Positions 40,992 to 45,150 of a stretch of DNA of 64,000 bases are shown one piece after another (the first letter of the stretch is position 1; every line of letters begins with the position of its first letter). The notes beneath the pieces were generated by a model. The model saw only the letters and a list, made by a program, of their open reading frames with translations. It had not been told where the DNA came from and did no database searches. A program made the position numbers and the translations under genes. Source of the stretch: Eubacteriales bacterium (GTDB taxonomy: Bacteria; Bacillota; Clostridia; Oscillospirales; SIG627). The DNA lies in the NCBI GenBank assembly GCA_045594565.1, contig JAZNYT010000010.1:321-64320 (forward strand), in the 5' to 3' direction.

Positions 40992-41290
40992 AATTTGCCT
41001 CCTTAAAAATTTGTGTTTTTTGGGAGCAGAAACTCAACACCGCACCGGGTGTTTCATCAACACCCTTTACAAAAGGATTTCAAGGTTACTCAAAATCCAC
41101 AGGCGCACCTCACCCATAAGAGCAAGGCTCTTTACTGTTGCAACTCGATTTACGCCCCCTATATATATAGAAGGAAGAAAATCCAAACAGTATCGAATTA
41201 TGTTGGTTTTACTGTCGCCCGTTTGTCGGACATACTCTGCGGAAATTCCCTACCTCACGGTAGCAACCTCCCGCTTCATCGCATATCAAG
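40992..41290 (-). promoter_or_regulatory. long structured 5' leader of the S10 operon (candidate autoregulatory leader)
   Basis: About 300 nt lie between the consensus promoter and the rpsJ start. On the minus strand there are several hairpins: CTACC-GTGA-GGTAG, AAGAGC-CTT-GCTCTT and GGATTT-N12-AAATCC. A three-segment alternative pairing, GGGTGTT / AACACCC / GGTGTT, occupies 41036-41065. Confidence 0.5.
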
Positions 41291-43857: not shown

Positions 43858-44169
43858 ATGGCAGAAAGAGAAGAATTTGAAGCGGATATACTCACACTCA
43901 CAGATGAAGAGGGTGTAGAAAAGAATTTTGCAGTAATCGGAGATATGGAGCTTGACGGCAATAACTATCTTGCTCTCGTTCCCGAGGATGAGGATGGCGA
44001 CGAGTTCGTTATTCTTAAGCTCGCTGTTGATGAGAACGGCAACGAAATGCTCGTTACTATCGACGACGACGATGAGTTCGACAAGGTTGCTGATGCATTC
44101 GAGGACGAGCTTATGGAAGAGTGCGACCACGACGGCTGCGACTGTGGCTGTGAGGATTGCAAGCACTAA
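43858..44169 (+). CDS. DUF1292-family acidic protein with Cys/His-rich tail
   Basis: 103 aa. ILTLTDEEGVEKNFAVIGDMELDGNNYLALVPEDEDGDEFVILKL...NEMLVTIDDDDEFDKVADAFEDEL fits DUF1292. The tail is ECDHDGCDCGCEDCKH. Confidence 0.75.
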   Translation: MAEREEFEADILTLTDEEGVEKNFAVIGDMELDGNNYLALVPEDEDGDEFVILKLAVDENGNEMLVTIDDDDEFDKVADAFEDELMEECDHDGCDCGCEDCKH

Positions 44170-44256
44170 GTCGTACAAGGGTTTTACCCTTGACCCACTT
44201 AGAAACTTTTTATAAAAAGTTTCTTGGAACTTCAAAAATTCTTATAATTTAAATTT

Positions 44257-44387
44257 GATTTTCGATAAGAAAATCTACCTTAACGTTGACTTTGTCAACA
44301 TTTCACGTGCGATAGCACATTTCATACGCCAACGGCGTATTTAACTCGGCAAAGCCGAATTTCATTGTATAACGCGTAGCGTTATAC
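44257..44387. repeat. array of six short perfect hairpins with about 20-nt periodicity and conserved ATTTCA-like linkers
   Basis: GATTTTC-GATAA-GAAAATC (44257-44275); GTTGAC-TTT-GTCAAC (44285-44299); GTGC-GATA-GCAC (44307-44318); ATACGCC-AAC-GGCGTAT (44324-44340); TCGGC-AAA-GCCGA (44346-44358); GTATAACGC-GTA-GCGTTATAC (44367-44387). The last five centres fall at 44292, 44312, 44332, 44352 and 44377. Confidence 0.8.
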
Positions 44388-44586
44388 TCTATTCCTGCGA
44401 TTCTCGTGATACCCGTATATAAACCCACAACACTAAAATGGATTCCCCTACTCGAAGCAGGTGCAGACCTCCCGTACAGGCTCGACCTATACGGACGTTG
44501 GGAGCAAAAATGTTAGAAAGCGGAAACCGCCCTTGCTTATGCAGGGTTTTTATCTATGGGTACACGGCCTTGTGGGAAGGACGTGT

Positions 44587-44623
44587 AAAAAAATAGTGAG
44601 TACTTCGGTACTCACTTATTTTT
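44587..44623. terminator. bidirectional terminator-like palindrome (copy 1 of a repeated element)
   Basis: AAAAAAAT-AGTGAGTAC-TTCG-GTACTCACT-TATTTTT. Confidence 0.65.
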
Positions 44624-44671
44624 AGTTATATTTGTGCTTACGCACAAGTTATATTGCTTCGCAGTTATATT
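44624..44671 (+). repeat. three direct copies of AGTTATATT
   Basis: Copies at 44624-44632, 44647-44655 and 44663-44671, separated by small hairpins TGTGC-TTAC-GCACA and GC-TTC-GC. Confidence 0.7.
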
Positions 44672-44718
44672 TTTCCTTCGGACAAGTGATGTTTTCTCCT
44701 GCGTAGAAAATTCAGGTT

Positions 44719-44750
44719 GATTTGCCTCAAGGGCAAATCTTCCTTTTTTT
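44719..44750 (+). terminator. plus-strand intrinsic terminator with no upstream plus-strand CDS
   Basis: GATTTGCC-TCAAG-GGCAAATC followed by TTCCTTTTTTT. It abuts the stop codon of the minus-strand gene at 44755. Confidence 0.55.
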
Positions 44751-44754
44751 ATAC

Positions 44755-45150
44755 TTATTTTACTACTTTTTTGTGGCAAGAGGGGCAATAAAAAGTATTA
44801 CTTTCTATATCTGAATTACCGTGTGGACATTTTATAAAATTATCTTCATTGTCATTTTTTTCATGTTCTTCGTCTTTATCTTCACCGTTATTTCCAAAAG
44901 ACAAATATTTCATTGAATTAGATATACTTTTCATGTAGCATAAAAATTCTCCGTAAGCATAATACATAACTCCGGACAAAAATAGTATAACAAGCACCAA
45001 CAGTGAACACACTACCCCTGTTGTAAACTCAAGCATAGTTGTTTCAAAATCAAGCAATAATACTATCAACATAGCAAACTGAAGTACCAGACCCAATAAA
45101 ATAATAAATTGACCGATAATCTTCAATACTTTTCCTATATTATTAAACAT
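44755..45150 (-). CDS. small two-TM membrane protein with acidic linker and C-terminal zinc-ribbon
   Basis: 131 aa. TM segments IIGQFIILLGLVLQFAMLIVLLL and VVCSLLVLVILFLSGVMYYAY, linker GEDKDEEHEKNDNED, then CPHG-x13-CPSC. Confidence 0.6.
   Translation of the reverse strand: MFNNIGKVLKIIGQFIILLGLVLQFAMLIVLLLDFETTMLEFTTGVVCSLLVLVILFLSGVMYYAYGEFLCYMKSISNSMKYLSFGNNGEDKDEEHEKNDNEDNFIKCPHGNSDIESNTFYCPSCHKKVVK

Follow-up and report, generated by a model that had tools for sequence, protein, structure and literature searches.

What is the run of short hairpins that lies between two convergent genes in contig JAZNYT010000010.1 of a Eubacteriales bacterium, which of its strands is the functional one, and does it fold as RNA or as single-stranded DNA? 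We consider these questions for a stretch of 64,000 nucleotides (nt) of this contig, referred to throughout as the window. A first-pass annotation of the window had drawn attention to six hairpins with different stems and nearly constant linkers in a gap of 585 bp (the flagged array). All six hairpins are present in the sequence, each is perfectly Watson-Crick paired (Table 1), and the centres of the last five are spaced as described, at about 20, 20, 20 and 25 nt. The array is a real structure, far above what chance provides. A scan for evenly spaced, perfect hairpins returned a single run of seven at 44236-44387 and runs of at most three elsewhere in the 64 kb. Of 200 random windows generated with a Markov-1 model, 157 had a longest run of three, 31 of four and one of five, and 11 had no run.

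The flagged array is a member of the catalogued Rfam family Gut-1 (RF01706). When the entire 64 kb were searched with cmscan, with the Rfam gathering scores as cutoffs, two matches were obtained in all. One of them is a full-length match of the Gut-1 model (positions 1-77) to 44295-44367 of the minus strand, which scores 56.9 bits where the gathering score is 50 (E 1.3e-8). The family is recognized by at least three consecutive hairpins with GUGAAAU- or GUGAUAU-like heptamers and variable, covarying stems; here there are five such hairpins, and their linkers, in the minus-strand reading, are GTGAAAT, ATGAAAT, GTTAAAT and AATGAAAT. The sequence of the array recurs only in gut, sheep-gut and bovine-gut metagenomes, which is the habitat of Gut-1. 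The first-pass annotation could match the array to no RNA family, and had itself named a clean match to a known RNA or mobile-element family as a result that would refute it. Such a match was obtained, and the array therefore represents no new family.

Weinberg et al. (2010; PMC2864571), who described Gut-1, found it in human-gut metagenomes only and classed it as a probable non-coding RNA with covariation; they reported neither a function nor a link to tRNA genes or to a protein. Their alignment already contains both the GUGAAAU and GUGAUAU linker classes, arrays of more than three hairpins, and arrays that follow terminators and tRNA 3' ends, and one contig of the seed alignment carries four copies spaced 240 nt apart. 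Our literature search found the motif mentioned only in that paper, in one sentence, and a text search with the heptamers returned irrelevant results only.

Constant linkers between variable, fully compensated stems had been taken as a sign of selection on a single-stranded fold, and the family as a whole bears this out. Two pattern scans, with one genome per species, yielded at least 211 arrays in at least 166 loci, nearly all in metagenome-assembled genomes (MAGs) of gut and rumen Clostridia, with some in Akkermansia and Victivallales and one MAG each labelled Bacteroidaceae and Bacteroides. The 211 arrays contain 507 distinct spacers, adjacent units being unrelated in sequence. In the 461 usable distinct hairpins, 2725 of the 2779 stem pairs are Watson-Crick and 54 are not, and orthologous hairpins differ by many double compensatory changes. 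The heptamers, which recur at intervals of 18-26 nt, are conserved, and the stems are variable. These figures make it very improbable that the heptamers are iterons, that is, sites for a protein that binds double-stranded DNA, with the palindromic spacers incidental. Such an explanation would suit the presence of heptamers in both orientations and their covariation between the halves of the element described below, which resembles that of operator half-sites or transposon ends, but binding to the duplex does not explain why 461 of 507 distinct spacers are nearly perfect palindromes, and with heptamers 18-26 bp apart the sites are not helix-phased.

We next consider the extent of the array in the window. 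The sequence AAGAAAATCTAC(C)TT is common to alleles with and without the array, which places the left boundary of the array near 44283 and the first of the six hairpins outside it, in the promoter or leader region of the downstream 6S RNA gene. This hairpin is no Gut-1 unit. All six listed hairpins thus exist, but only five belong to the array proper, the first being outside the segment that relatives lack. Array-less contigs of four lineages (X27/X29, X25, X2 and X28) join the upstream region directly to position ~44391/44392, and the nearest genome, a Clostridia MAG from sheep rectum (L360) with a phosphoglucomutase 68% identical to that of the window, is also without the array. Contigs that bear the array occur in X2, X3, X5, X10 and X25 and show 0-3 differences from the window. 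Sample X2 contains both forms; because its array-less contig differs at 16 bases in the 124 nt upstream, it comes from a related lineage and not from the same strain. The flagged array is a lineage-specific insertion upstream of the 6S gene. No clear target-site duplication was found at this indel: the TCTA(Y)TT similarity is weak, and the sequences of the relatives have diverged too far for a verdict.

The gap had been described as gene-free, which does not hold: it contains a 6S (SsrS) RNA gene that had escaped annotation, a bidirectional terminator and a second array. On the plus strand, the DUF1292 gene and its terminator are followed by a promoter region, the flagged array, the 6S gene, the bidirectional terminator, the second array, a further terminator and a convergent open reading frame (ORF) of 131 amino acids. 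The match of the 6S region to RF00013 is full-length, with 30.5 bits (E 2.7e-4) in a permissive local scan, which is below the gathering score of 46.4. The same order of phosphoglucomutase, DUF1292, 6S (27.2 bits), terminator and a short array is found in the sheep-rectum genome, and the 6S regions of the two genomes are ~88% identical, with G.U pairs on the plus strand only and three compensatory pairs. The region has the rod fold that characterizes 6S RNA (long and irregular, with a bubble at the centre), it is conserved, and it is covered by RNA, metatranscriptome contigs over it beginning at 44392 and ending at 44568-44583. Only 4 nt separate the end of the flagged array from the closing helix of 6S. 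A TATAAT hexamer upstream of the array is a possible -10 box of the 6S unit; in relatives, boxes resembling TAAATT, TAAAGA or TAAAAA lie 13-15 nt before the 6S body.

Table 1. Features of the gap and its borders, with positions in the window.
Feature	Position	Strand	Details
DUF1292 gene (left neighbour)	43858-44169	+	Terminator hairpin 44166-44202
TATAAT hexamer	44241-44246	+	Possible -10 box of the 6S unit
Hairpin GATTTTC-GATAA-GAAAATC	44257-44275	+	7 bp, 5-nt loop, perfect Watson-Crick
Segment present here, absent in relatives	44283-44391		Boundaries good to a few bases only
Array proper, five perfect mini-hairpins	44285-44387	+ (putative functional strand)	Sequence, Rfam match, distal-half model, loop polarity
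Hairpin GTTGAC-TTT-GTCAAC	44285-44299	+	Perfect Watson-Crick
Linker ATTTCAC	44300-44306	+	
Hairpin GTGC-GATA-GCAC	44307-44318	+	Perfect Watson-Crick
Linker ATTTCAT	44319-44325	+	
Hairpin ATACGCC-AAC-GGCGTAT	44324-44340	+	Perfect Watson-Crick
Linker ATTTAAC	44339-44345	+	
Hairpin TCGGC-AAA-GCCGA	44346-44358	+	Perfect Watson-Crick
Linker ATTTCATT	44359-44366	+	
Hairpin GTATAACGC-GTA-GCGTTATAC	44367-44387	+	Perfect Watson-Crick
6S (SsrS) RNA gene, unannotated	44389-44582	+	Rfam full-length match, synteny, covariation, RNA contigs
Bidirectional intrinsic terminator	44588-44623	both	A-tract, 9-bp stem 44595-44616, T-tract
Second Gut-1-like array	44623-44697		GTTATAT linkers on +; hairpins 44632-44647 and 44655-44663, one imperfect
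Intrinsic terminator-like hairpin and T-tract closing the gap	44719-44750	+	Hairpin 44719-44739
131-amino-acid ORF (right neighbour)	44755-45150	-	No Pfam family, 17-bit CoiA_N trace only; 3' end faces the second array

Comparison of the loci reveals that the Rfam model of Gut-1 covers just one half of a bigger element with dyad symmetry. The canonical order is a tRNA gene, a bidirectional terminator (A-tract, hairpin, T-tract), a proximal array, an inverted distal array and, often, a gene for a four-helix-bundle protein; 31 composite inverted arrays were found. The proximal half, which is the part modelled by Rfam (55-88 bits), has short G+C-rich stems and linkers of the GTGAAAT or GTGATAT type, and the distal half has ATTTCAC or ATATCAC linkers and longer stems. 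Among the tRNA-linked halves examined, all 17 proximal halves lie behind the tRNA, at 36-407 nt (most at 36-70), as do all 25 distal halves, at 52-390 nt (22 at 121-140), and no array lies upstream of the tRNA. The adjoining tRNAs are of many isotypes, and identical units of terminator plus element occur behind different tRNAs. At one locus (L031) two copies stand 2.7 kb apart, and the sequence that they share begins at the A-tract of the terminator. We take the arrays to be parts of an intergenic element that is dispersed and polymorphic in gut Clostridia, and not free-standing small RNA genes. As a separate observation, an Akkermansia sp. MAG from goat caecum (L004, 2280-3330) carries three tandem units of ~440 bp, each consisting of a Gut-1 array with GTGAAAT linkers (60-67 bits) followed by an array of the same orientation with (C)GAGATT linkers, which differs from the clostridial inverted pair.

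Two further features tie the parts of the canonical element together. In 21 of 23 tRNA-anchored elements, a long-range complement of 7-12 nt, present in at least seven sequence versions, encloses the proximal half; RNAalifold renders it as a 10-bp helix with many double changes and only two broken cells in 220. In addition, there are seven linker classes (ATTTCAC, ATATCAC, ATTTCAT, ATTTCAA, ACTTCAC, ATAACAC and ATTTAG), each with its complement in the partner half. This covariation of heptamers fits either linker-linker pairing or a shared, co-evolving binder. A ladder of paired linkers is predicted for L031. As a conserved fold it was set aside, provisionally: in many class-2 elements the GTTATAT linkers of the proximal half face invariant ATATCAC distal linkers with a U.C mismatch, and the covarying helix closes the proximal half on itself. 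Other candidates were also rejected. Kissing between the loops of the two halves found no complementarity within an element (by eye, in L137 and L177). As to a small ORF through the array, visual inspection of L137 showed one open frame, but indels are common and the lengths of the units are not divisible by three. A phage origin was discounted with only ~5 of 119 viral-contig pattern matches being real arrays.

Both arrays of the window depart from this plan. The second array, which matches Rfam Gut-1 on the plus strand with 40.3 bits in a permissive local scan (below the gathering score), lies directly behind the 6S terminator, in the canonical position of a proximal half, without the long-range helix and without a distal half. 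It is a truncated proximal half. The sheep-rectum genome has a two-unit version at the same position, and unit content varies among relatives. The flagged array is less typical. Its stems are of the proximal type, yet it stands upstream of a stable-RNA gene, and it has no terminator before it, so that the position behind a tRNA or other stable-RNA terminator that characterizes canonical copies is lacking, as are the long-range helix and an inverted partner. It also has five units where the Rfam model has three hairpins, all from the tRNA-proximal half, and its linkers are a mixture of ATTTCAC, ATTTCAT and ATTTAAC.

The proteins encoded near the arrays can provide information about what might act on them. 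Clustering of ORFs within 2.5 kb of the arrays at 166 loci revealed one specific recurrent neighbour, a protein of ~115 amino acids whose gene begins 16-55 nt after the distal half and runs in the same direction at 11-12 of the 166 loci. It belongs to PF05635 (23S rRNA intervening-sequence protein) and TIGR02436 (four helix bundle protein), and the closest solved structure is 2RLD, an entry with five chains. The search was also reversed, with a set of 80 loci anchored on the protein (L440-L519). A recognizable array ended 14-66 nt before the start codon at 42 of 76 of these loci, and at 35 of 76 a tRNA on the same strand ended 203-290 nt upstream. In a test that made no use of the motif, a periodic 6-mer preceded the gene at 58 of 75 loci; its reverse complement recurred further upstream in 49 of the 58, and a copy in the same orientation in only two. 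At none of the loci examined did arrays follow the PF05635/TIGR02436 gene. The gene (for example L039 1046-1393, L056 1271-1618, L007 4811-5170 and the genes of L440-L519, all in gut Clostridia) stands in a fixed module with the tRNA, terminator and inverted arrays, in which some members have a TTGAAA-17-TATAAT promoter right after the last linker and others a ribosome binding site only. A literature search on the protein family found no functional study. The gene is absent from the 64-kb window, and as no TIGR02436-type protein is encoded there, the two window arrays are solo copies.

To decide which strand of the arrays is functional, we compared hairpins on the strand that reads ATTTCAC. 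Read in this way, triloops are GNA in 130 cases and TNC in seven, and tetraloops are GNNA in 88 cases and never TNNC; the closing pair is C-G in 81% of a first set of 246 hairpins. The rule holds separately for proximal halves, read antisense to the tRNA, and for distal halves, read in the tRNA sense, which gives the element its dyad symmetry. Stem pairs say little about the strand (24 G.T against 12 A.C wobbles on the ATTTCAC strand, with 18 other mismatches, in 2779 pairs), and loop polarity is decisive for the ATTTCAC reading. In the flagged array this reading is on the plus strand, with loops TTT, GATA, AAC, AAA and GTA; the second array has to be read on the minus strand, where its loops are GTAA, GAA and CGAA. 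We infer that the functional strand of the flagged array is the plus strand, the same as that of 6S and opposite to the one called by Rfam. A covariance model (R1) built from 21 distal halves found only two places in the window with E <1, at 44300-44368 on the plus strand (25.6 bits) and at 44622-44692 on the minus strand (29.8 bits). Since these strands are opposite to those of Rfam, the strand called by a covariance model depends on the half from which the model was built.

Taken literally, the Rfam match would mean that the minus strand holds a small RNA gene of its own, trans-acting, with GUGAAAU linkers and divergent from 6S. The match itself and the description by Weinberg et al. (2010; PMC2864571) of a probable non-coding RNA with covariation agree with this, as does the canonical long-range helix, which has five G.U against one A.C cells in the tRNA (GUGAAAU) orientation. 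We nevertheless consider it improbable. The loops would be of the disfavoured TNC and TNNC types, and the strand call flips with a model made from the other half. Such an RNA would have to start inside the 5' end of 6S, where no promoter was called, and no terminator follows it. In canonical copies the half in the Rfam orientation comes right after an efficient-looking tRNA terminator with no promoter between.

The account that we tentatively prefer, and to which we give slightly less than an even chance, is that the flagged array is a solo five-unit Gut-1 repeat in the leader of 6S, transcribed on the plus strand and tolerated there, whose heptamers are displayed for a single-strand binder. 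Since the array is located between the promoter region and the 5' end of 6S, in this lineage only, transcription of the plus strand would place it in a leader of ~100-140 nt of the 6S precursor. This leader would read hairpin-AUUUCAC-hairpin and would presumably be trimmed off during maturation of 6S. The C-G-closed mini-hairpins with G...A loops may hold the A/U-rich heptamers unpaired, so that the array could act as a landing pad, or as a sponge, for a factor that binds single strands sequence-specifically, of which the four-helix-bundle protein is a possible candidate. With no gene for such a protein in the 64 kb, the flagged copy itself would be a tolerated, probably near-neutral insertion. 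That arrays can reside in transcripts is indicated by six of the protein-anchored loci, at which the last ATTTCAC-type linker lies 14-17 nt from the start codon with only a ribosome binding site between; as there is no room for a promoter, the distal array must be part of the 5' untranslated region (UTR) and be read as ATTTCAC. Canonical arrays are also covered by metatranscriptome contigs, at a depth of 10-17.

Several observations weigh against this account. The four-helix-bundle gene is missing from ~93% of the arrays found by pattern, as it is from the window. A consensus promoter scan called no full 6S promoter at the TATAAT hexamer, and the one RNA contig over the array starts at 44235, upstream of the putative -10 box. 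The RNA runs consist of low-depth contigs without direction, in which carry-over of DNA is possible, and RNA depth over a canonical element is at least 300-fold below that of the adjacent tRNA. The complementarity of linkers could reflect linker-linker pairing instead of a binder. Finally, there are the features of the hairpins themselves. The array stems have ~1% G.U wobble, whereas the adjacent terminators have 16 G.U against four A.C cells. About half of the loops are C(GNA)G triloops (triloops make up 53% of the first set of 246 hairpins), and tetraloops of the GNYA type (39) do not fall far short of those of the GNRA type (64). A conserved unit with a stem of 3 bp, TGC-GAA-GCA, is not folded by RNA parameters (0.0 kcal/mol). 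This unit contains d(GCGAAGC), which in the work of Hirao reportedly forms an extraordinarily stable DNA mini-hairpin, the RNA version being unstable. The triloops and the TGC-GAA-GCA unit fit DNA mini-hairpins at least as well as RNA.

Many of these points are shared by a DNA-level explanation, in which it is single-stranded DNA, arising in replication, repair or single-strand transposition, that forms the active hairpins. The element would then be a selfish or structural repeat of the REP/BIME/REPIN type whose inverted halves each fold, on their own strand, into hyper-stable C(GNA)G and C(GNNA)G mini-hairpins of DNA, and the window copy would be non-autonomous and have arisen by transposition or conversion. 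Besides loop types, strictly Watson-Crick stems and low RNA depth, the dyad polarity of the loops suits this explanation: the rule applies to the bottom strand in the proximal half and to the top strand in the distal half, and the halves stand too close together for divergent promoters, of which no convincing example was seen between them. The element is also multi-copy, occurs behind different tRNAs, is present or absent among relatives, is often found at contig ends and extends across phyla. We regard this explanation as a serious rival, though unlikely. At six loci the distal array is unavoidably in a 5' UTR, and a covarying long-range helix that spans ~110 nt is more usual for RNA. Neighbour clustering gave the four-helix-bundle gene and common families only, with no recurrent transposase or HUH gene: none of the 15 commonest ORF clusters within 2.5 kb (3-13 loci each) was transposase-like by its leading sequence, three of them being scanned against Pfam, in a search confined to the neighbourhoods. 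The indel of the window lacks a clear target-site duplication, and viral contigs hold few real arrays. For the flagged copy, RNA is somewhat more likely than DNA, because its position makes transcription of the plus strand nearly unavoidable.

A transcribed array in front of 6S might alternatively tune 6S expression, each hairpin with its AUUUCA acting as a weak terminator and the inverted halves of canonical elements as a two-way insulator, for which their symmetry is suited. In the ATTTCAC reading, every hairpin is indeed followed by an A/U-rich tract, TCGGCAAAGCCGA together with ATTTCATTGT was called terminator-like, and terminators on the same strand are found downstream of arrays in 50 cases and upstream in 17. 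However, the tracts contain just three U (class 1) or none (AUAUCAC, class 2), distal arrays lie inside the 5' UTRs of expressed genes, and 6S is evidently not abolished, since the array-bearing allele persists nearly unchanged in several samples. We consider such an attenuator quite improbable.

For the family as a whole, we put forward a wider proposal, which is possible but on balance unlikely to be correct in full. Gut-1 'RNAs' would be the cis-acting arrays of an undescribed element that resides behind stable-RNA genes and comprises a bidirectional terminator, inverted arrays with co-evolving heptamers, and a pentameric TIGR02436 (Avd/S23p-like) protein that reads the heptamers on single-stranded RNA or on DNA mini-hairpins. 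The many arrays that lack the gene, among them both that flank 6S in the window, would be non-autonomous copies or extra landing pads.

How does this element compare with known systems? Like the REP, BIME and REPIN repeats of Proteobacteria, Gut-1 arrays are extragenic hairpin repeats that follow genes or terminators, form inverted pairs and are multi-copy, with presence and unit number differing between relatives. REP stems, however, are conserved within a genome and carry a 5' GTAG recognized by the RAYT transposase, whereas Gut-1 stems differ freely, it is the linker that is conserved, and the hosts are mostly Clostridia. The flat rejection of a REP/BIME-like repeat in the first-pass annotation was too strong for a family that behaves as dispersed, polymorphic intergenic repeats in inverted pairs, although its stems lack the conservation of REP stems. 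The sponge RNAs CsrB, RsmY and RsmZ resemble the arrays in that a short motif is repeated between or on variable stems, an architecture for titration or recruitment. Their GGA motif is mainly in loops and their binder is CsrA, whereas the Gut-1 motif is in linkers and has its complement in the partner half of an element that is not a stand-alone, abundant small RNA.

Intervening sequences of 23S rRNA, which interrupt the rRNA and are excised at a long flanking stem, share with the canonical Gut-1 composite a protein of the same family (S23p, PF05635) and a location in or against stable-RNA genes. The Gut-1 element differs in being placed after a tRNA terminator and in consisting of hairpin arrays, and the window copy has no such gene in the 64 kb. 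ToxI and CRISPR are also periodic arrays in non-coding DNA, and the distinction that had been drawn from both is upheld. ToxI consists of identical 36-nt repeats beside toxN; here all units differ, and the neighbours are a DUF1292 gene and an unannotated ORF. CRISPRs have repeats of 24-48 nt, non-palindromic spacers and cas genes, whereas here just 7 nt are constant and the variable parts are palindromic; a Pfam scan of six ORFs on either side of the gap found no cas gene.

Two other features of the window were noted. At 44194-44238, a perfect palindrome of 24 bp, AGAAACTTTTTATAAAAAGTTTCT, is followed by TGGAACTTCAAAAATTC. Matches to this block occur in many metagenome and metatranscriptome contigs that are otherwise unrelated and differ in their flanks, with an RNA word depth of 47-60 in some; it is typically preceded by a hairpin and ...CCCGCCA and followed by a sequence that resembles a ribosome binding site. 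It was absent from all fetched loci and from the rest of the window, and represents a dispersed intergenic module of its own, which may be a promoter or operator. In addition, an S10-Clostridia ribosomal-protein leader (RF03136) occupies 41215-41288 of the minus strand; its score of 42.5 bits exceeds the gathering score of 35.1.

Annotation of the window should therefore gain a 6S gene and two Gut-1-type arrays, and not a new class of RNA. For Gut-1, which has been without function and context since 2010 although it is widespread in gut and rumen Clostridia, the comparison provides testable handles: a dyad element, a fixed polarity behind tRNA terminators, a G...A loop rule on the strand opposite to the annotated one, and a four-helix-bundle neighbour. 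The last of these also bears on PF05635/TIGR02436, a large family with solved structures but no assigned role.

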